Source: an uncultured Cytophagales bacterium (GTDB lineage: Bacteria; Bacteroidota; Bacteroidia; Cytophagales; Cyclobacteriaceae). Taken from it: 64,000 nt of DNA. Under the pieces are notes generated by a model, which made no database searches, had not been told where the DNA came from, and worked only from the letters and a program-made list of their open reading frames with translations. Positions 3,236 through 54,223 of the stretch are shown here, in pieces. The translations under genes were made by a program, and so were the position numbers. Within the stretch, counting starts at the first letter, position 1, and every line of letters begins with the position of its first letter. The stretch spans positions 50,934 through 114,933 of the forward strand of contig CALOAV010000030.1 in the NCBI GenBank assembly GCA_942491425.1, in the 5' to 3' direction.

Positions 3236-4744
3236 CTATTCAGAAACAAATCCCAATAATTCATCTGCAATTTTCCGATCATTCGACAACCTCGGCACTT
3301 TATTTTGCCCACCGAGTTTACCTTGTGATCTCATGTATTCAATAAATGAACCTTTTTTTAATAATTGAATCACCAGTGTACGTAAAATATTTCCGGTGAT
3401 CAAATCATCGTAGTAAACATTGAGGGTACGCAATTGGTTATCCAGTTCCAATGAAAATGCGGTCATATCAGCTGGGGCGTTGGCAAATTCAATAAACCAT
3501 TCATGGTGTGGGAGCCCATCTTCCGAAATCACCTTGGGAGCTACCGTAAACTCTACCAATTCTACTTCAGGAAATTTTTCACAGGTAAATTTCATTGCCT
3601 TTTCCACTTCTTCCCCAATCACATGCTCACCAAAGGCCGAGATAAAATGCTTGATTCTACCGGTGACCAACAAACGATAGGGGTCTTTCGATACAAATTT
3701 GATGGTATCACCAATGGAGTATCCCCAAAGACCTGCATTGCTATTAATGACTACCGCATAGTTTTTTCCCAACTCCACTTCCTCAATGGATAGACGTGTT
3801 GGGTGTTCATTAAAATATTCTTCCGCAGGAATAAATTCAAAAAAGATTCCGCTGTCTAACAACATCAAAAGACCCTCTGTATGCTGCGTGTCCTGATAAG
3901 CGATAAAACCTTCTGATGCCGGATAGGTTTCGATGGAATCGATTTTCTTGCCAATGGATTCCATCAACTTCGATCTGTAAGGTTCAAAGTTGACACCGCC
4001 ATACACAAACAGGGAAAAATCAGGAAATACATCTTTGATTGGTTTCCCTGTGCGTGCCTGAATCCGATCGAAATACATCTGCACCCAGGGTGGGATTCCA
4101 GAGATCAAAGACATATTCGCATTAATGGTTTCATCGATTATTTTCTCCAGTTTCTCTTCCCAGTCTTCGATGCAATTCGTTTCATAGGTCGGCTTTTGAT
4201 TGGTTCTCAAGTAACCGGGAACATGATGATTCACAATCCCGGAGAGGCGTCCGGTATGAATGCCCGCCTTACTATCCAACACCGGACTACCGGAGAGAAA
4301 AATAAGGCTACCATCCAAAAAAGCGGCTTTCCCGGTTTCATGAACATAACTTAACAATGCGTTTCGTGCACTATTGATATGGTTGGGGATGGAGTCCCTG
4401 GTAATTGGAATGTATTTGGTTCCAGAGGTAGTCCCCGAGGTTTTCGCAAAATACGCAGGCTTTCCGGGCCACAGAATATCGCTGTTACCCGCTAATATCG
4501 AGTTGACATACGGTTTCAGTTCTTCATAATCACGAACAGGAACCTGTTTTTTGAAGTCATCATAGGATTGTATGGATTCAAACCCATGGTCTTTACCAAA
4601 TGCGGTCGGTGCTGCCTTATGAATAAGATTAGAAAAGGTTTTTTTCTGGCTTACTTCAGGGTTCAACGACCATTTTTTGGTCTCTTTAGCAATATAAGCA
4701 GCAAAAGGTTTAGCAAGTACCGACCGAAATCCCATAGCCCACAA
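3236..4744 (-). CDS. GH3 auxin-responsive promoter family protein (acyl-adenylate-forming enzyme superfamily)
   Basis: 502 aa; typical Bacteroidota GH3-family N-terminus; full-length match. Confidence 0.8.
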   Translation of the reverse strand: MWAMGFRSVLAKPFAAYIAKETKKWSLNPEVSQKKTFSNLIHKAAPTAFGKDHGFESIQSYDDFKKQVPVRDYEELKPYVNSILAGNSDILWPGKPAYFAKTSGTTSGTKYIPITRDSIPNHINSARNALLSYVHETGKAAFLDGSLIFLSGSPVLDSKAGIHTGRLSGIVNHHVPGYLRTNQKPTYETNCIEDWEEKLEKIIDETINANMSLISGIPPWVQMYFDRIQARTGKPIKDVFPDFSLFVYGGVNFEPYRSKLMESIGKKIDSIETYPASEGFIAYQDTQHTEGLLMLLDSGIFFEFIPAEEYFNEHPTRLSIEEVELGKNYAVVINSNAGLWGYSIGDTIKFVSKDPYRLLVTGRIKHFISAFGEHVIGEEVEKAMKFTCEKFPEVELVEFTVAPKVISEDGLPHHEWFIEFANAPADMTAFSLELDNQLRTLNVYYDDLITGNILRTLVIQLLKKGSFIEYMRSQGKLGGQNKVPRLSNDRKIADELLGFVSE

Positions 4745-4911
4745 AGCTAAAAAAACTTAAGCAGTACGAAGGAAAAAGTTTGTAAACCATAACTAACTTT
4801 CAGGCGTTATATATTTGCGAAGCAATTTAACCTTCAAACTTTTTTGAAGGTTACATCATCCCTAACGGTTGATGAGCTATATGAGATGAAATTTGAAAAT
4901 CAAATTTAAAA

Positions 4912-6507: not shown

Positions 6508-7602
6508 ATGAGTTCAATTACCTCAAATATGAAGCTTACGCAAGAATCCTTAGCCAGGATTCTGGATTTTCTGCCCTACCCCTTTCTAATTGCGGTAACA
6601 GAAAATGATACGGTTCATGTGAAGTTTGGGAATAAAAAATTTGAAGAAGAAATTGGTTATTCCATTGATGAAATCAGCACCATTGATGAATGGTTTTTAA
6701 AAGCCTACCCCAATTTGTATTACCGTACAGAGATAAAAGCAAAATGGATGGCGAAAGTAGATGACGCGATTCGGGAGAAACGTAATTATGTGGTAGAGCG
6801 GGCTCATATCACTACGAAGCATCGTGGGCAAATGTGGTATGAAGTGAAATCTTCCCTGGCAGGCGATCTCCAGTTGGTAGCCTTTGTGAATATCCACGAT
6901 GTCATTGAAAAAGATAATAAATTAGAGCGTCTCAATGAAAATAAGAACCGTATTCTATCGATCCTTGGACACGACCTTAAATCACCTTTACAGAATTTAG
7001 ACAGACTTATCCAACTATTAGTGGAAGGCGGATTATCAAAGGAAGAATTCGAAAACAACCTGATCACCATTCAACGACTCAGCAAAGAAACCCTCCAGTT
7101 TATTGACACGACACTTACCTGGACAAGGAGTAATTTTGAAGATCACAAACCGGTTCTGCAAAAATTTTCTCTGCATGAGTTGGTCTGCAATATAGTTGGC
7201 CTGTATAACCGGGAATTTGAATCCAAGAAAATTTCGCCATTGATCAATATTCCTATTGATACCATGGTGTTTAGCGATCGGGAGATTATGCATATTGCCA
7301 TTCGAAATATAATTTCCAATGCAATAAAATTTTCACCTGCGGAAACACCCATTATAATTTCCTTTCACGAGCGTGAAAAAAATAACTGTGTAACGATTAC
7401 CGATGAAGGAGAAGGAATGCCTCCTGATATTATCGACCAGATTCTAAAAAATCAACCGACAAAGACTTCTGGTTCCGGCTTTGGCATTGGCCTTCGGCTT
7501 TGCAAAGAGGTGCTGCAACACGTGAAGGGAAGATTGGAAATTAATAGCAGTCCGGGAAAAGGAACTTCTATAACGGTCGTGGTTCCAAAAATCTCCCTTT
7601 AA
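6508..7602 (+). CDS. Sensor histidine kinase (PAS-like plus HisKA/HATPase_c)
   Basis: H-box ILGHDLKSPL; N box IRNIISNAIKFS; G2 box GSGFGIGL. The ORF-track start at 6424 lies in a hydrophobic low-complexity stretch; the internal ATG at 6508 is more plausible. Confidence 0.75.
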   Translation: MSSITSNMKLTQESLARILDFLPYPFLIAVTENDTVHVKFGNKKFEEEIGYSIDEISTIDEWFLKAYPNLYYRTEIKAKWMAKVDDAIREKRNYVVERAHITTKHRGQMWYEVKSSLAGDLQLVAFVNIHDVIEKDNKLERLNENKNRILSILGHDLKSPLQNLDRLIQLLVEGGLSKEEFENNLITIQRLSKETLQFIDTTLTWTRSNFEDHKPVLQKFSLHELVCNIVGLYNREFESKKISPLINIPIDTMVFSDREIMHIAIRNIISNAIKFSPAETPIIISFHEREKNNCVTITDEGEGMPPDIIDQILKNQPTKTSGSGFGIGLRLCKEVLQHVKGRLEINSSPGKGTSITVVVPKISL

Positions 7603-46862: not shown

Positions 46863-46880
46863 CTACAACTAGTTCAAATC

Positions 46881-46914
46881 AAAAGAGCGGTACTTCTACC
46901 GCTCTTTTTTTTTA
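46881..46914 (+). terminator. Rho-independent terminator (agagcggta-cttc-taccgctct plus T9)
   Basis: Read directly. Confidence 0.85.
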
Positions 46915-47001
46915 CACAGCGGTAAACGGGGATGTTTAACATCTCTTTAACACAACTATCCTTCAAGATGGCGTAGTTTTACTTTCAAACCAGAAGATAT
47001 T

Positions 47002-47613
47002 ATGAGCCTAAACAAAATAAGTTTCGCATTCATTTGTTTTGCAACTCTCCCAATCACCCTAAACGCTCAAGACGAAAGCGAAAAAGAATCTGGATTTTTT
47101 TTAAAAACGGATACTACCTGGAGAAAAGAACTTTTTACATTCCCTTTGGGTTTTGCCCAGGAAATTCCCTACACAGGTCTGGAGGATGCACGATTTCCTG
47201 TTGGTTGGGAACATATAGAGAGCCCTAATTTTTGGTCGTACGCTTTTGCCTGGAGCATTGAAGACAAAAAGAGTGTTACGGAAAAAGAGTTGGAGATGAA
47301 TCTCAAACTATATTTCGACGGCCTGATGGAAATTACCTCGAATAGCAATAAAACTGATGTAACAACTACAACCGTAGGCATTCATCCGGAAGTAAACTCG
47401 AATGAGGTGAGGATGTTTAGCGGAAAGCTTACAACTTTTGATAGATTCTTTACCAAAAAGAAACTGACTCTAAATATTTTGGTGGAACACCATTACTGCC
47501 ATCAGAACAATAAATCCATTATTCTTTTTAGATTTTCACCAAAGGCATTTGATGATGCAGTCTGGCCAACCTTAAAAAGCGTAAAGCTTGAGCATGATGT
47601 TTGTGAATTGTAG
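47002..47613 (+). CDS. Hypothetical secreted protein
   Basis: Signal peptide MSLNKISFAFICFATLPITLNAQ; 203 aa; no recognised motifs. Confidence 0.5.
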   Translation: MSLNKISFAFICFATLPITLNAQDESEKESGFFLKTDTTWRKELFTFPLGFAQEIPYTGLEDARFPVGWEHIESPNFWSYAFAWSIEDKKSVTEKELEMNLKLYFDGLMEITSNSNKTDVTTTTVGIHPEVNSNEVRMFSGKLTTFDRFFTKKKLTLNILVEHHYCHQNNKSIILFRFSPKAFDDAVWPTLKSVKLEHDVCEL

Positions 47614-47643
47614 TACACCTAACTAAAAGTGGAAGATTGCGAA

Positions 47644-47757
47644 TCCCATAGTATTTCTTGCTTTGCTGTCATGAAGCGGGCAAGCACAAGCGGACGCTTG
47701 CGCTGTCATGAAGCGGGCAAGCACAAGCGGACGCTTGCGCTAGTGGGTATTTTCTAA
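47644..47757. repeat. Left direct repeat of a DR-flanked cassette (about 75-bp unit with an internal 39-bp tandem duplication)
   Basis: tcccatagtatttcttgctttgctgtcatga...gcacaagcggacgcttgcgctagtggg matches 48541-48608. Confidence 0.85.
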
Positions 47758-48013
47758 GGCTATCAAAACCAAAAAAACCTATGGGGCTCTGTTCATTATT
47801 TCCAGGTTATGTTTGATGTAAGCCATATCTAAATTATTATTTAAAATAATTCTAAATAAGTTGGGATTTAAGGGTTCTGATTTTTAGTTTTGATCCTTAT
47901 TTATAATCAATCTAAATAAAGAATGTATAAAAATCTTGCTCCCAGTACCATAAAAGTCCATTTACGTATCATAGTCCCTCTTCAATGGAGGTTAGGGGTC
48001 ATAAGCTTATAAG

Positions 48014-48571
48014 TTGATGATCGAGAATAAATTAAGGGCCATCCACCGCGACTTAGGGTATCTGTATGTCGGACTTATCGTTTCCTTTGCCTTTTCAGGA
48101 ATTCTAATGAACCATCGTCAGGCCTGGCACCCTGAAAAATACACCATTGAAACAAAGCGAATTGAAATTCAAAGATTTCAGGAATATGAATTTGTCATTA
48201 CAGATGAATTCGTAGATAACCTCGTTGATGAATTAATGATAGAGGATAAACTTAAGCGCCATCTGGTAAGGAATGGACAGTTACGGATGATGTTTGATAA
48301 TACGGAGGTGGAAATAGACACAAAAACAGGGCAAGGCGAAATCATTCATTTTATTAAGACCCCATTGATTAGTCATCTAATAAAATTGCACAAAAATACT
48401 TCTGTCTTTTGGATATACTATTCGGATATTTTTGGACTCTCACTGATTACCATTGCGATTACAGGCACGATGCTGTTTACCCGCGGGAAGTATACGTTTA
48501 GAAAGCGAGGATGGAAACTTGCACTGGCAGGGATTCTATTTCCCATAATATTTCTTGCCTTGTTGTCATGA
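48014..48571 (+). CDS. PepSY-associated TM-helix family membrane protein
   Basis: N-terminal LRAIHRDLGYLYVGLIVSFAFSGILMNHRQAW and a C-terminal TM helix; the last about 10 codons lie inside the right direct repeat. Confidence 0.55.
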   Translation: MMIENKLRAIHRDLGYLYVGLIVSFAFSGILMNHRQAWHPEKYTIETKRIEIQRFQEYEFVITDEFVDNLVDELMIEDKLKRHLVRNGQLRMMFDNTEVEIDTKTGQGEIIHFIKTPLISHLIKLHKNTSVFWIYYSDIFGLSLITIAITGTMLFTRGKYTFRKRGWKLALAGILFPIIFLALLS

Positions 48572-48608
48572 CATGGAAAAGCACAAGCGGACGCTTGCGC
48601 TAGTGGGG
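48541..48608. repeat. Right direct repeat of the DR-flanked cassette
   Basis: About 70 nt nearly identical to 47644-47757 (single-copy version). Confidence 0.85.
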
Positions 48609-48709
48609 GAAACTCCGCTTTTTTTGATCCTGTTTTGCGAAATCAGGACATCCAGGGCATTTGGTTTTAATTGCTAAGCCGATTAATTTCGTAGACCTCA
48701 AATCAAAAA

Positions 48710-48782
48710 GCGGGAGTAGCTCAGTTGGTAGAGCGGCAGCTTCCCAAGCTGCAGGTCGCGAGTTCGAGACTCGTTTCCCGCT
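48710..48782 (+). tRNA. tRNA-Gly (anticodon CCC)
   Basis: Manual cloverleaf: acceptor GCGGGAG/TTCCCGC; D-arm GCTC/GAGC; anticodon stem GCAGC/GCTGC with loop TTCCCAA; T-arm GCGAG-TTCGAGA-CTCGT; discriminator U73; no encoded CCA. Confidence 0.85.
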
Positions 48783-48909
48783 CATGTTCGCTGTTTATGA
48801 AACAGCTTTAAATACCTTTCAACCTTGCGCATGATGTCCACAATTAAGGCATTTACAATGACTTATTATTGTTGATACCGGAGTCAAGAAAGATTGGAGA
48901 TTTTAACCG

Positions 48910-49494
48910 CTACCCTCCCTTAATCTGGACTAGCACCAACTCGCATCGTTCAATTCCTTTTATTGTGAACACAATCTTGCAGCTATTTTCCATTACTGCC
49001 ACATCGCCAGGACCCACAGTATTATGAGTTTTATTGATGGTGATGTCTGCGCTTCCAGCATACATGTAAATAAAATACCAATCGGTTTGATCATCAATTT
49101 CGATCTGATCCTGCTGTTCATTTTCTATAACGATGGCACGAACTACACCGGATACTTTTCCGCGTGTCATTAGATTGAAATCCGTGCAGGTGCCTTTGCA
49201 TGTTGTATTCCAATCTCCTTTAAAATGATCAGCACCAAATTTTTTAAGGAGCACCACATGCTGATCAGAGTGTGAAAGTGTAACTTCACCATCCAATACC
49301 ACCAGTGTACGTGAAACACCTGGTAATCTGGTGAATTCAGATGAATCTGCTTCAACGTCAGCCGTACTGAGTCGAAAAAGAAAATCGCGATGTTGATAAG
49401 TTGAACCTTTTGGAAAAATGAAAAGTTCAGTCGTTGAACCTCCAGACCAACGCGTAGTCTTAAAATCTTTAGCAGAGAGAATCGAAAACTCCAT
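48910..49494 (-). CDS. hutD: HutD/Ves-family protein
   Basis: 194 aa; N-terminal ...TTRWSGGSTTELFIFP matches the HutD (PF05962) W.nGgG.T.E signature. Confidence 0.65.
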   Translation of the reverse strand: MEFSILSAKDFKTTRWSGGSTTELFIFPKGSTYQHRDFLFRLSTADVEADSSEFTRLPGVSRTLVVLDGEVTLSHSDQHVVLLKKFGADHFKGDWNTTCKGTCTDFNLMTRGKVSGVVRAIVIENEQQDQIEIDDQTDWYFIYMYAGSADITINKTHNTVGPGDVAVMENSCKIVFTIKGIERCELVLVQIKGG

Positions 49495-49610: not shown

Positions 49611-52600
49611 CTACTCTGATATTTCTTCTACCGCTATAAGATTATCATCGGGTATACGATCGATCATTTTATTATAGGGATCTATGCCAGCCTTAACTGG
49701 TAATTTTTTCGTGGTAAACGTATACGTTGAATGACCTGGGCTTACCCATACGCGTTCCAAAACGATTGGAGACTTGATGGTCATCCCCTGCGAATTTTTT
49801 ACATCCGCATCAAAAATTCCAATTTCAAGTAAATTTGGCCGGCTACCCTCTTCCAGTAATTTTCCATTGCCATCGAAATAATTCTTTGCGCTTTCAACCT
49901 CGATGGTGACTTCGTACTGATCATCTGCCAACTTTTTATAGGACGCTTTGGATACCTTATTCGAATACAGTGTTATCTTTTCAAAGCTGTCCTCCAGATA
50001 ATACTTCAGCGAGTCAGGTGTTACTGATTTCATATAATCATACCATTCTATAGTAGTACTAAAGGGCGCTTTGGGTCTGAAACGTGCTGCTTCAGTATAT
50101 GCCTTAAACCCACTGTTTAAATTCGACTCTCCAATTAAATCCTGAAGACCATACAGTATCAACCCTCCTTTTCTATACCAAACATAGGCTTGATTATCAT
50201 TATCCAACAGCGTCTTTTCAAACTTACTTTCATTTGCTCTGCTTTGTAAGTATCTGTCTAATTCCTCTTTTAAGAATTTCTGCATGGCATCCACCCCATA
50301 CTCCTTTTTCATTACCATTAATGACGAATACTCCGCCATTGACTCCGAGATTTGATTTGCACCACGCGTTGCGGAAGGCGTAATCTGATGTCCCCACCAT
50401 TGATGAGCAACTTCATGCGCCGTTACCGTAAATACATAGTCCAAATCTTCAGGATCACTAAAGTCGCCAACCCAGCCAAAGCTCTCGGCAAACGGAACAG
50501 TATTAGGAAAAGACTGAGCAAATGTCGCATACCTGGGGAATTCCAAAATGCGCATTTGTCTGTACTGGTACGGACCGTAATTTTCAGAGAAGTAATCCAT
50601 TGATTTCTTAACCCCATTTACAAATCGATCTAAATTATAGGTATGGCTGGGGTGATGAAAAATTTCAATGTTTACTTTTTTACCATCATTTCCTGTCCAC
50701 ACTTCCCGGTGTACAGCATATTCTGCGGAAGAAATGTTGTAAAAGAAATCCAGTTCCCCTTCCATTTTATACGTGAAATATCTTCTGCCGTTTTCCTCCC
50801 ACTCCTTTACAAGATATCCGGGCATGATCGCAATCTGGTTTGGCGCCGTACTGACCGTACCTTCAAACGTAATGTAATCAGCATCATCGTTAAACAGCAG
50901 GTTATTCAAACCCCAGGGATCCGTTTGCTCGGGTAATTGATAGTCTTTGATCGGCAAATCGTATTTTTTTCGATCCTGATCGCTGGTCATTTCAGCTTGT
51001 GCGCTATATCCAAATGATGGGAAAAAGTTATTATTCAGAAATGTTCCATTATAGACAATGGTAGAACCGGTGCCCTCGTTGGGGAACCCCTTGTAAGAGG
51101 CTGAAACCTCCAAAGTCATTGTAATGGTGTCGCTGGGATTTAAGGGCGTATCAAATGCATATATTTCATAGCCGAAATCATCGTACCGTTTTCCCAATAC
51201 CGGTGCCTTTCCATTGATGGTAAATTCTTTGACTTCCTGCTTCAGTAACCCCTCAGCACCCCAATTTAAATGCAGTGAATCAATTACTTCATCCGTTTTA
51301 TTGACCATTATGTAGTCTACTCGGATAACGGCACTGCGTTCTTCAGGCACTAAGTCCGCAATCACTTTAACATCAATAATTTTTGGCTGAGCAATTTTAT
51401 CGTACTTACCTAAAGTCTTTTCGTAATTAGCGGACCCAATCTTACCGGCTTTTACCGTTCGGTAGTGATTGACCGTTTTCGTATTGTAGTGAATAAAGGC
51501 TCCTGAACCAATAAATACTACAAAAAGAAGGATCGTCACACCAATGGTTTTTACATTCAATCGTTCCTTAACCAATTGCCATCTTGCCTTGAAACCCGTA
51601 TCGGTACCCCGCTTCCAGAATAAATAACCGATAACGGTTAACACCCCGCCACAGGCCAGCCAGTAGGTTCTAAACCATGCCAGTGCTTCGCCAAAATGCC
51701 CGAACCCATTCATGTCTGAAACAGTATACCCGGGCGCATAGCTATAGAGGTATAGATTATTATTGATATCACCCAGGCTGTTGAGGCCAAAAAGCAATAC
51801 CCATATGGCGATAGCAATAACATGACCCATAAATTTTTTTGTCACCATTGAATGCACAAAAAAGGCAAGCATAATAAAGATGATGTACTTTGGAAACTCA
51901 ATGAAATATAAATCAGTGAAGTACTTATCAAATTCAAAATTAAAATAACCCTTTATTACCTGATTGATAACCCCACTAACCAAAATCATATTTACCAAAA
52001 TAAAACTCACCATCGTCAACGCCAGAAATTTTGAACCATAGACAATGCGATTGGGTATTGGCAACGATCCGAAAATTTGATCATAGTTCACATTACGTTC
52101 CCGGTGCAAAACTTCACCGGTCATAAATACAATCAGAATAAAAATTAAAATGATATAGGTAAAGTCCTTTACCTCAAGCATATAATAGGTAAGCGGCAAG
52201 GATGGAGTTCCATATATAGGAAAGCCAAACCAGGCATCAAAAAACAAAAACAATACTGCAGCAATAAGAATGGCTTTAAAGAAGTTATCACTGATAATAT
52301 TCTTAAACTCCATGATCGCTAAACCAAACAACAATTTAAATTGAAGTGATCCTGAAAATACTTTTGAAACACCGGGGATTTTGATATGAGCCGCAGATTC
52401 TTTCGGTATATCCTCGTTGTCCCTTTTCTTTTTTGAATTGTAATTCTTATTTAAGAATTTCTGAAAATCGAACCGAAAAAGTGTAAAGAAAAAAGCTGAC
52501 AACCCCAGCCCCACCCAAATGAGACGATTCCAAATCAACAAACCACTAAAAGGCACCGTCATCGTATTTTGTTCCTCTGGTGTCCAATACCGAATAACGT

Positions 52601-53255
52601 TGCTATACGCTCCCAGTCCAAAGGGATCAAGCAAACTCACCAGGTCTTTATTTTCAATGTCCTGTGTAAGTGTTAAGGTAATGAGGTAGGTTATAAAAAG
52701 AATAGCTCCGCCTGCATAGGCCAACATTACTTTTTTTGTTAAGCTTACCAGGGCGAAGAAAATACAACCCGCAAAGAAATAATTAGTCCAGTAAAGGGTA
52801 AGTGTTGGTTGAGCATAATACCAAAAATTAAAGTCTGTAAATCGCTCAGCTTCTTCATATCCTGCAAACGGCCCAATTATAAACCCGACAATCAGACCTA
52901 CATGCAATCCAAGACTTACTAAAAAAAGAACAGCCATGGAACCAAAAAAACGACCCATCAAATACCCTTTTTCGCTGATTGGATAAGAGAAGTAATAGTT
53001 CTCGGTTTGATGCTCAATGTCGCGATATACAGGTACTCCCATGATCGCACTGGAAAGCATGATTCCAAATATGCTAATGGTCACCAGCATGGTTGCAATT
53101 GCTACCGGTGAATTGACGAATACCTTCTCTGACGCAGGGCCATTGCCACCAATGGCCACAATGAGACCGAAAATCAGCAGAATGCCAAAATATGCCCAGG
53201 TTGCAGGCCGATTCAGTCGGTACTTAATTTCAAATAAAAATATTTCTTTAAACAT
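49611..53255 (-). CDS. Fusion protein: ABC-2-type transporter permease (multi-TM N-terminal half) plus M1-family zinc aminopeptidase domain
   Basis: 1214 aa; about 12 TM helices in the first about 550 aa; C-terminal HEVAHQWWG (HEXXH) plus downstream Glu, gluzincin M1 style; follows an ABC ATPase gene in the same orientation. Confidence 0.85.
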   Translation of the reverse strand: MFKEIFLFEIKYRLNRPATWAYFGILLIFGLIVAIGGNGPASEKVFVNSPVAIATMLVTISIFGIMLSSAIMGVPVYRDIEHQTENYYFSYPISEKGYLMGRFFGSMAVLFLVSLGLHVGLIVGFIIGPFAGYEEAERFTDFNFWYYAQPTLTLYWTNYFFAGCIFFALVSLTKKVMLAYAGGAILFITYLITLTLTQDIENKDLVSLLDPFGLGAYSNVIRYWTPEEQNTMTVPFSGLLIWNRLIWVGLGLSAFFFTLFRFDFQKFLNKNYNSKKKRDNEDIPKESAAHIKIPGVSKVFSGSLQFKLLFGLAIMEFKNIISDNFFKAILIAAVLFLFFDAWFGFPIYGTPSLPLTYYMLEVKDFTYIILIFILIVFMTGEVLHRERNVNYDQIFGSLPIPNRIVYGSKFLALTMVSFILVNMILVSGVINQVIKGYFNFEFDKYFTDLYFIEFPKYIIFIMLAFFVHSMVTKKFMGHVIAIAIWVLLFGLNSLGDINNNLYLYSYAPGYTVSDMNGFGHFGEALAWFRTYWLACGGVLTVIGYLFWKRGTDTGFKARWQLVKERLNVKTIGVTILLFVVFIGSGAFIHYNTKTVNHYRTVKAGKIGSANYEKTLGKYDKIAQPKIIDVKVIADLVPEERSAVIRVDYIMVNKTDEVIDSLHLNWGAEGLLKQEVKEFTINGKAPVLGKRYDDFGYEIYAFDTPLNPSDTITMTLEVSASYKGFPNEGTGSTIVYNGTFLNNNFFPSFGYSAQAEMTSDQDRKKYDLPIKDYQLPEQTDPWGLNNLLFNDDADYITFEGTVSTAPNQIAIMPGYLVKEWEENGRRYFTYKMEGELDFFYNISSAEYAVHREVWTGNDGKKVNIEIFHHPSHTYNLDRFVNGVKKSMDYFSENYGPYQYRQMRILEFPRYATFAQSFPNTVPFAESFGWVGDFSDPEDLDYVFTVTAHEVAHQWWGHQITPSATRGANQISESMAEYSSLMVMKKEYGVDAMQKFLKEELDRYLQSRANESKFEKTLLDNDNQAYVWYRKGGLILYGLQDLIGESNLNSGFKAYTEAARFRPKAPFSTTIEWYDYMKSVTPDSLKYYLEDSFEKITLYSNKVSKASYKKLADDQYEVTIEVESAKNYFDGNGKLLEEGSRPNLLEIGIFDADVKNSQGMTIKSPIVLERVWVSPGHSTYTFTTKKLPVKAGIDPYNKMIDRIPDDNLIAVEEISE

Positions 53256-53287: not shown

Positions 53288-54223
53288 TTATGCAGAAGCA
53301 GTTTCCATCCGGGATGTAATTTCAGCAAAATACACATCCTCTAAATTCGAGTCACTTGCTTCAAAAGATGCATCCGGTTGTTGATCACTCAATACATGAA
53401 TAACTGTCTGTCCGGCTTTCAGATGGGTTGAGATTACCTGCATTTCGGCCTGGTATTTTTCAAGATCTGCTTTTTCAATTGGCTTCTTCCAGATACGTCC
53501 TTTTACTGCATCCATTAAAATATTGGGATTGCCTTTAACCACAACTTCTCCAAGACAAATGATCGCCATATTATGACAAAGGTTAGAGATGTCTTCAACA
53601 ATATGCGTCGATAAAATAACGATGGTTTGCTCTCCGATCTCACTTAATAAATTATGAAACCGAACACGCTCAGCCGGATCAAGTCCTGCTGTAGGCTCAT
53701 CAACTATAATTAATCTGGGGTCTCCTATCAGGGCTTGCGCGATGCCAAAACGTTGCTTCATACCCCCTGAATACGTGCCGAGATTTTTATTTCGAAATTG
53801 CCAGAGATTGGTTTTGGTCAATAATGACTCAACCAGATCTTTGCGTTCACCTTTATTGGAAACACCCTTCAACGCGGCAATATGATCCAGCATCTTATAC
53901 GCACTTACTTTTGGATACACCCCAAACTCCTGGGGGAGATACCCCAGAATCTCACGCACTTTTTCTTTTTCATTCAACACATCGATATCGCCAAGTTTCA
54001 CCGAACCAGAATCAGCTTGTTGTAACGTTGCTAACGTCCGCATTAACGATGATTTTCCTGCACCATTGGGTCCCAGTAAACCAAACATTCCCTGCGGTAT
54101 GGTAAGTGTAACATCTTTCAGGGCCTGCACCCCATTGGGATAGGTCTTGCTTAAATTATTGATTTCTAATTCCATAGTTGTGGGTTGATATTCGTAATAT
54201 TTATAGTATGCAGAAACTTCCAA
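53288..54223 (-). CDS. ABC transporter ATP-binding protein
   Basis: Walker A GPNGAGKSSLMR; signature LSGGMKQR; Walker B IIVDEP. Confidence 0.9.
   Translation of the reverse strand: MEVSAYYKYYEYQPTTMELEINNLSKTYPNGVQALKDVTLTIPQGMFGLLGPNGAGKSSLMRTLATLQQADSGSVKLGDIDVLNEKEKVREILGYLPQEFGVYPKVSAYKMLDHIAALKGVSNKGERKDLVESLLTKTNLWQFRNKNLGTYSGGMKQRFGIAQALIGDPRLIIVDEPTAGLDPAERVRFHNLLSEIGEQTIVILSTHIVEDISNLCHNMAIICLGEVVVKGNPNILMDAVKGRIWKKPIEKADLEKYQAEMQVISTHLKAGQTVIHVLSDQQPDASFEASDSNLEDVYFAEITSRMETASA

Follow-up and report, generated by a model that had tools for sequence, protein, structure and literature searches.

Repetitive extragenic palindromes (REPs) and bacterial interspersed mosaic elements (BIMEs), together with their REP-associated tyrosine transposases (RAYTs, TnpA-REP), as described for the REPs of Escherichia coli and the REPINs (inverted REP doublets) of Pseudomonas, are the closest known counterparts of a repeated hairpin that we analyzed in DNA of an uncultured Cytophagales bacterium. 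The DNA is a stretch of 64 kb from contig CALOAV010000030.1 (here called the window, with positions counted from its first nucleotide), in which copies of the hairpin stand on both sides of a PepSY_TM_like_2 gene close to a tRNA-Gly(CCC) gene. The hairpin resembles the REP/RAYT systems in being a short imperfect palindrome, in its extragenic position with a preference for gene 3′-ends and convergent gene pairs, in its occurrence as singles, inverted dimers and arrays, and in the inverted flanking of a single small HUH/Y1 transposase gene. However, the present family carries a 3′ yAG..GGG tail and a fixed A·C mismatch instead of a 5′ GTAG or CGTC tag, and the copies in the window are all direct and are not accompanied by a RAYT gene there.

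Among the RAYTs, the nearest described relatives are those of subclass 2.6, which corresponds to group 5 of Bertels, is specific to Bacteroidetes, and is bordered by "atypical secondary structures" that recur at other places in the genome (PMC6006769; PMC5581495); its signature is NH[LIV]H / WQ / YIH[QN]NP, and its proteins average 179 aa (Quentin et al., 2018, PMC6006769). Two further kinds of element are similar in layout. The tRNA-linked genomic islands share with the window additional DNA that is enclosed by direct repeats and located close to a tRNA gene, but the window has no integrase, the tRNA 3′-end is missing from its repeats, the repeat core is a dispersed REP, and the cargo is one housekeeping-type membrane protein gene. 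The IS200/IS605-derived palindrome-associated transposable elements (PATEs) likewise hold passenger DNA between same-strand hairpins related to those recognized by a Y1 HUH enzyme, but the window lacks TnpA, TnpB, defined cleavage tetranucleotides and other copies of the unit, and the duplicated coding end found here is not explained by this type of element.

Based on the comparisons in this work, we propose that the layout of the locus is probably the outcome of a local, REP-associated duplication at an intergenic site prone to rearrangement, and that the PepSY gene is not a mobile cassette with attachment (att) sites. The repeat search returned one family, with members at 47644–47704 (the reference), 47681–47741 (an internal duplicate) and 48541–48601, at 87% identity over 61 nt, which bears out the two repeat locations given by an initial annotation of this DNA. 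The repeat is 61–68 nt long; counted with the common tail AGTGGG, the left copy spans 47644–47747 and the right copy 48541–48608, its end falling at 48607/8. The tandem duplication that the initial annotation had noticed inside the left copy is present as well, with a period of 37 nt and not 39 (47665–47741, 2.1 copies, 100% match in Tandem Repeats Finder).

The repeat consists of two unlike parts, a coding-like part of 31 nt and a hairpin with its tail of 29 nt, which are parted by an 8-nt spacer. In the right copy, the coding-like part comprises the last 10 codons and the stop of the PepSY gene, as had been described. In the left copy, it is a relic of the 3′-end of the same gene (47644–47674, + strand), reading PIVFLALLS-stop against PIIFLALLS-stop in the intact gene and being identical to 48541–48571 at 28 of the 31 nt, with the three differences amounting to one conservative change (I to V) and two synonymous ones; an in-frame TAA (47624–47626) precedes it. 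The ending FLALLS-stop is common to the relic and the resident gene only, the PepSY relatives ending in LVIFM, LLCFL or LFCFL before the stop, and FPI(I/V)FL aligns with the C-termini of these relatives in tblastn. Because the relic and the gene share the lineage-specific LALLS-stop, and FPI(I/V)FL is homologous to the relatives, the left repeat copy is, as judged from the alignments, a copy of the resident PepSY gene's own end, and the direction of copying is from the gene end to the relic. The shared LALLS ending excludes that the left copy is a distant paralog, or a mobile unit that gave the gene its C-terminus. The relic may extend further upstream (47627–47643, KWKIA against GWKLA of the intact gene) if an in-frame gap of 15 nt is allowed, but this extension is uncertain, as tblastn aligns 47630–47671 with PepSY residues 167–185 at a non-significant E of 1.9, and MAFFT did not recover it. 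A small gene at the left copy, either a 42-aa open reading frame (ORF) at 47629–47757 or the relic frame itself, was considered and rejected; a start codon is missing from the relic frame, and there is no supporting evidence for either candidate.

The hairpin part, an imperfect palindrome of 22–29 nt with the form (A)GCACAAGCGGACGCTTGCGC(T)AG..GGG, is the same in all three window copies. Its 22-mer AGCACAAGCGGACGCTTGCGCT has exactly three exact matches in the window (47683, 47720 and 48580), all on the + strand, and did not occur in 100 shuffles. Copy A1 (47683–47704) scores 39.2 bits with the covariance model of the family; copy A2 (47720–47741, 46.3 bits) lies within the 37-nt tandem duplicate at 47705–47741, which is composed of GTCATGA, the spacer and the REP, and is followed by the tail AGTGGG (47742–47747) that forms the right end of the left repeat copy; and copy B (48580–48601, 50.4 bits), followed by the same tail at 48602–48607, starts 8 nt past the PepSY stop. 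Copies A1 and A2 are situated 70–108 nt downstream of a 203-aa ORF on the left flank. Between copies A2 and B, the hairpin with its tail (AAGCACAAGCGGACGCTTGCGCTAGTGGG) is identical at 29 of 29 positions, against 8 differences in the adjoining 39 nt, 5 of which fall in the 8-nt spacer. The invariance of the REP and its tail next to these diverged 39 nt suggests that the REP in the window may be under constraint or homogenization, and the probability of the 29/29 identity would be about 0.001 by our own calculation if the divergence of the flank is neutral.

This hairpin is widely distributed in other genomes. The 20-nt core was scanned as an exact match in one genome per species (596 Gb) and was found in at least 119 genome stretches, where about one match would be expected by chance according to our estimate. 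Among the matches listed, the taxa are Cytophagales (Pontibacter, Rufibacter, Adhaeribacter, Cyclobacteriaceae and Flammeovirgaceae), Chitinophagales, Sphingobacteriales, Bacteroidales, Balneolales and one Chlorobiota metagenome-assembled genome, and several genomes have 4–6 REP-bearing stretches each; the single matches in Arthrobacter and in Desulfobacterales fit the chance expectation. The same 20-mer had no match in 2.9 million viral contigs. Conservation across 161 instances is limited to about 24 nt, (G/A)GCACAAGCGGACGCTTGCGC(C/T)A(G), followed after a few bases by a G-rich patch; the flanks are unrelated, and the yAG..GGG 3′ tail belongs to this consensus in other genomes too. The unit of about 24–29 nt forms a stem of 8–9 pairs with a loop of 4 nt, so the window hairpin has the imperfect palindrome and stem-loop typical of REPs. 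Its outermost stem pair covaries (G-C 38, A-U 19, G-U 5), with none of 500 shuffles reaching the score. The A·C mismatch in the stem of the top strand is retained in 180 of 234 copies; on the bottom strand the mismatch position is a G·T pair, and the hairpin is uninterrupted, folding at −7.5 kcal/mol (z −3.2).

With respect to position, the copies are intergenic in 151 of 164 instances and most often lie between convergent genes, where they are enriched. Inverted doublets occur in other genomes, for example as a 72-nt unit present twice in the stretch L066; no such doublet is seen in the window, where all three copies are on the + strand. An Rfam scan of 47400–48900 (E up to 10) returned the tRNA only, with no family covering the REP hairpin, and a full-text literature search with the core and its complement gave no match. 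Since the core is found in at least 119 stretches, is intergenic, and is adjacent to RAYT genes as described below, the repeat core is to be regarded, from its sequence and distribution, as a REP element and not as an att site. The REP in the window thus belongs to the Bacteroidota RAYT group; REPs as such are known, and this consensus has neither an Rfam family nor a literature match. The initial annotation had named membership of the repeat in a common genome-wide terminator/REP family, together with an identical arrangement in related genomes, as what would make mobility unlikely, and a REP family is what was found for the hairpin part of the repeat.

The association with transposase genes was examined by a motif scan and then tblastn across the 119 REP-bearing stretches (829 kb). 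At least 14 of the 119 hold near-full-length homologs of a 182–185-aa protein, and about 10 more have N- or C-terminal fragments; RAYT genes are present at about 1–2 copies per 4–6 Mb genome (PMC6006769), and our estimate of the number expected by chance in 829 kb is about 0.3. Three of the proteins were tested and match the NCBIfam family NF047646, "REP-associated tyrosine transposase", at 94–101 bits (cut-off 80), as well as Pfam Y1_Tnp. REP-like hairpins lie within about 450 nt of the RAYT gene in 12 of 12 genes examined. In five stretches (L072, L033, L048, L107 and L014), a REP(−) is upstream and a REP(+) downstream of the gene, which is the classical inverted arrangement; in L052, arrays of about four REPs stand on each side (L052:180–1400), and many other REPs adjoin truncated RAYT ends. 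With the motifs NHVH, WQ and YIH(N/L)NP, a length of 182–185 aa, an origin in Bacteroidota, and copies of the flanking hairpin elsewhere in the genomes, the proteins resemble RAYT subclass 2.6 (PMC6006769); the assignment is made by motifs, length and phylum, and we infer that the REP hairpin would be the "atypical structure" of this subclass, the text of that paper giving no hairpin sequence. Whereas classical REPs co-diverge with their RAYT, the adjacent RAYT proteins here are only about 45–68% identical to each other while the 20-nt core is invariant across several orders (e.g., L072:3025–3773). This invariance suggests either horizontal spread or an extra constraint on the hairpin, and the core could also be read by a conserved host factor.

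How the repeat-gene-repeat layout could have arisen is outlined as follows. The ancestral order would have been the 203-aa ORF, the leader, PepSY, the REP and a terminator. Along one path, the last 10 (perhaps 16) PepSY codons would have been copied together with the REP about 0.9 kb upstream, to a place 14–30 nt after the 203-aa ORF; along the other, a unit of about 0.86 kb would have been tandemly duplicated and the first copy would then have lost its 5′ 0.78 kb. A later slippage duplication of 37 nt would have added the second hairpin to the left copy and completed the present layout. Replication template switching at the hairpin, partial tandem duplication with deletion, or nicking by a RAYT encoded elsewhere would be possible routes. 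For both paths it holds that the right edge of the copied piece is the REP's own 3′ edge, AGTGGG. The duplication may have been promoted by the REP hairpin, because REP-adjacent partial duplications recur elsewhere: in L072 (3611–3926), the main REP is immediately followed by a second copy (97% identity, spacing of 172 nt) of a 144-nt segment that comprises the last ~22 RAYT codons and a variant hairpin, and L045 and L079 have REP-containing partial duplications of 256 nt and 132 nt, respectively. Paired direct REPs also tend to share longer 5′ than 3′ flanks. In L119, from Pedobacter sp. UBA4863, a REP(−) with a truncated RAYT 5′-end occurs in three copies (860–1260, 4550–4800 and 6560–6900), one of which is without exactly the ~43-nt REP-containing piece bounded by TAAwTT; this looks like an insertion or excision polymorphism of the REP between paralogous copies.

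The intergenic spot in which the duplication is placed can be compared among relatives. On its left is the 203-aa ORF of unknown function (47002–47613, + strand), which is conserved in Flavobacteriaceae and has no Pfam or NCBIfam match; among its 60 homologs, the best are at 73% and 60% identity, and its downstream neighbor is a different gene in each of the relatives examined. On its right is a HutD/Ves family gene (48910–49494, − strand; PF05962, 119.8 bits), convergent with the block. In L131–L134, which encode E1-beta (96.6%) and SPFH (91.7%), the SPFH gene is followed by 78 nt with a bidirectional terminator and then by the convergent HutD gene (62%), with no 203-aa ORF, PepSY or tRNA between SPFH and HutD; in L126, a 204-aa homolog lies 11 nt from the convergent HutD; in L124, SPFH (93%) and a 203-aa homolog (73%) are followed by Lgt on the other strand; and in more distant relatives the 203-aa ORF has no conserved neighbor. 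Against the conserved SPFH-(203 aa)-HutD frame, the segment 47614–48909, which holds the relic, the left REPs, the leader, PepSY, the right REP, the terminator and tRNA-Gly, is therefore extra. Protein identity falls abruptly to the right of the SPFH terminator, from 96.6% for E1-beta and 91.7–93% for SPFH to 73% for the 203-aa ORF and 62% for HutD, and each relative has a different set of genes between SPFH and HutD (46863–48909 compared with L124, L126 and L131–L134). The gene orders compared here thus mark the SPFH-HutD interval as an apparently rearrangement-prone spot, a hot spot of recombination or plasticity. In the relatives, neither PepSY nor the 203-aa ORF is followed by a REP-like sequence, with up to 4–5 substitutions allowed.

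The initial annotation had read the direct repeats as the footprint of either site-specific integration or duplication, and only the duplication stands, in the form of the copied 3′-end of the gene. A footprint of integration (attL/attR) left by a small integrase-less element beside tRNA-Gly would agree with the position of one gene between direct repeats at a distance of about 100 nt from a tRNA, and with the absence of the block between the same flanking genes in L126 and L131–L134; we nevertheless regard it as highly improbable. No integrase or recombinase is present in the neighborhood, as the initial annotation had stated: no integrase-like ORF was found in 45–51.5 kb, and the Pfam-scanned genes of 38.6–64 kb are housekeeping-type or have no Pfam match. 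The tRNA 3′-end is part of neither repeat, and its last 30 nt occur only once in the window with up to 3 mismatches allowed, giving no att-type repeat, while the invariant core of the repeat is the phylum-wide, RAYT-associated REP. When an element integrates into a gene's 3′-end, the gene is restored and its displaced end comes to lie downstream; in the window the order is the opposite, with the orphan gene end upstream of the intact gene and its promoter region. The synteny comparison proposed for the tRNA-Gly locus did show the block to be extra, but the seemingly empty L126 and L131–L134 also lack the tRNA and both repeats, and with their 203-aa ORF homolog and HutD at only 60–62% protein identity they are not true empty-site alleles. 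The further suggestion of a remnant or non-autonomous element applies to the hairpin, which belongs to a non-autonomous element class, and not to the gene, around which there is no att/integrase footprint. Movement of the gene by other means could be imagined as a RAYT- or IS200/IS605-style composite, in which two direct REP hairpins carried PepSY, as single-stranded DNA, out of a receptor operon. In its favor, PepSY is separated from the receptor gene behind which it stands in each of the four relatives examined, sits in the non-syntenic block, and is bounded by same-strand hairpins of a HUH/Y1-linked family, and the ~43-nt difference between the L119 repeat copies suggests that the REP can move on its own. 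Yet the REPs around RAYT genes are inverted and not direct, the 31 nt of the gene's coding end within the repeat are not accounted for by an excision that hairpins define, the likewise extra tRNA-Gly is not enclosed by the two hairpins, and neither an enzyme in the window nor a second copy of the unit was found, so that such a composite appears quite unlikely. We would give similarly little credence to a REP-gene-REP composite that is working or was so recently, with a RAYT, acting on two same-strand REPs or by one-ended copying, having brought the PepSY_TM gene from its TonB-dependent receptor operon into the SPFH/HutD hot spot.

The explanation nearest to the REP-associated duplication is that ordinary unequal recombination or slippage produced a tandem duplicate of the entire PepSY gene and its REP, and that the upstream copy, a relic paralog, lost its first ~170 codons with the REP as a passive passenger. 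This would reach the same end state, and the relic does keep its reading frame with only conservative and synonymous changes, while the possible in-frame gap of 15 nt (KWKIA-----NPIV...) would suit a period as a functional paralog. We consider it rather unlikely, as it needs two events and not one, the duplicated piece ends on the right precisely where the REP itself does, at its 3′ boundary AGTGGG, and the recurrence of REP-adjacent partial duplications in unrelated genomes argues for an involvement of the hairpin; in addition, three substitutions are too few to show selection, and the upstream extension is neither significant (E = 1.9) nor present in the MAFFT alignment. On the other side, several observations weigh against the REP-associated duplication that we favor. 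The mechanism that would have placed the gene-end and REP piece 0.9 kb upstream is inferred, and tandem duplication of the whole gene with deletion leads to the same arrangement. In the 64-kb window, tblastn detected no RAYT gene, and the covariance model, run with filters off, found only three REP copies, all at this one locus, with the next-best hit at 11 bits. No Flavobacteriales genome is among the at least 119 core matches listed. Canonical REPs carry a GTAG or CGTC foot (PMC3733652), which this consensus lacks, its conserved bases outside the stem being the 3′ (C/T)AG; this deviation is in keeping with the "atypical" structures described for RAYT subclass 2.6 (PMC6006769). Finally, if the 31 coding-like nt with their 3 mismatches serve as the neutral yardstick, the probability of the 29/29 identity is only about 0.05, and the argument for constraint on the REP is then weak.

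The PepSY gene itself (48014–48571, + strand) encodes 185 aa from a TTG start, or 184 aa from the ATG at 48017, and its product matches Pfam PF16357 over residues 22–182 at 40.6 bits (cut-off 27), in line with its initial identification as a PepSY-TM gene. It has 1118 homologs, mostly in Flavobacteriaceae, with the best non-self match at 71%. In 4 of the 4 relatives examined (L001 and L002, which carry the PepSY protein of Yeosuana marina, L004, which is Thalassobellus, and L125), the gene directly follows a TonB-dependent receptor gene, starting 3 nt past the receptor stop in L001, L002 and L125 and 64 nt past it in L004. The receptor-PepSY pair of these four stretches adjoins DHFR/ThyA. In the 64-kb window, tblastn with three receptor proteins detected no TonB-dependent receptor and no receptor relic, and the PepSY gene stands alone with its own AT-rich leader. 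This upstream region (47748–48013, 266 nt, + strand) may serve as promoter or operator; it has the AT-rich composition and the repeated TAAATAA motifs that had been pointed out (GC 0.32 at 47750–48049), with two 23-nt direct repeats, TTATTTAwAATmAwTCTAAATAA, at 47837–47859 and 47897–47919, 60 nt apart, and TAnnTTTG-type motifs (TAGTTTTG at 47884–47891). The 23-nt repeats could be candidate operator sites for a regulator, e.g., an iron-responsive one.

Downstream of the gene, the terminator scan detected an intrinsic-terminator-like hairpin with a T-run (48602–48626, + strand), AGTGGGGGAAACTCCGCT followed by TTTTTTGATC, whose 5′ arm is the REP tail: the tail of copy B pairs with CTCCGCT and gives the terminator stem before the T-run. 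In Proteobacteria, REPs are known to act at 3′-ends in transcription termination or mRNA stabilization. By analogy, a role of the present hairpins at mRNA 3′-ends, in termination or in stabilization, is plausible, and at most the REPs of this locus would act as such 3′-end hairpins, being themselves non-autonomous. A separate terminator of the window, at 46881–46911 (arms GAGCGG / CCGCTC), lies directly downstream of SPFH and is placed like that of L131, and 48608–48625 matches the 3′ half of the SPFH/HutD intergenic terminator of L131 and L133 at 17 of 18 positions; an ancestral SPFH-HutD terminator may have been split, or else duplicated, by the extra DNA. The bidirectional SPFH-HutD terminator of L131 (L131:3755–3790), GAGCGGAG-GAAA-CTCCGCTC, resembles both 46881–46911 and the 3′ half of 48602–48626.

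The tRNA-Gly(CCC) gene (48710–48783, + strand; ARAGORN; Rfam tRNA, 64.8 bits) lies in the extra block but outside the repeat, starting 101 nt past its right copy, which agrees with the ~100 bp given initially. A 17-nt imperfect direct repeat at 47584–47600 and 48821–48837 (15/17) encloses the extra block, tRNA included, with almost no deviation. It was considered as an outer junction of the block; about 0.08 such pairs are expected by chance in this region on our estimate, the sequences beyond it are unrelated, and it is probably a chance occurrence. Further to the right, 49611–53255 on the − strand encodes a 1214-aa protein in which an ABC-2-type permease region is fused to an M1 peptidase domain, and an ABC ATPase gene (53288–54223) is located just upstream on the same strand.

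In conclusion, this work describes a locus with two mildly unusual traits, a REP core that is invariant across orders and the 3′-end of a neighboring gene that is co-duplicated with the REP. It also calls for caution in annotation, since a perfectly conserved repeat core beside a tRNA gene looked like att sites and is a dispersed REP hairpin. As a by-product, a Bacteroidota REP consensus tied to a RAYT subfamily is now defined, which could serve for masking and annotation and for testing how RAYTs recognize a hairpin that has no GTAG. If the composite reading considered above were true, the REPs would be vehicles for gene relocation and not mere intergenic repeats. Under the REP-associated duplication that we favor, the locus would be a small and clean example of a REP dragging the 3′-end of its neighbor gene to a new position, and it presents a PepSY_TM gene that is uncoupled from its TonB-dependent receptor partner.

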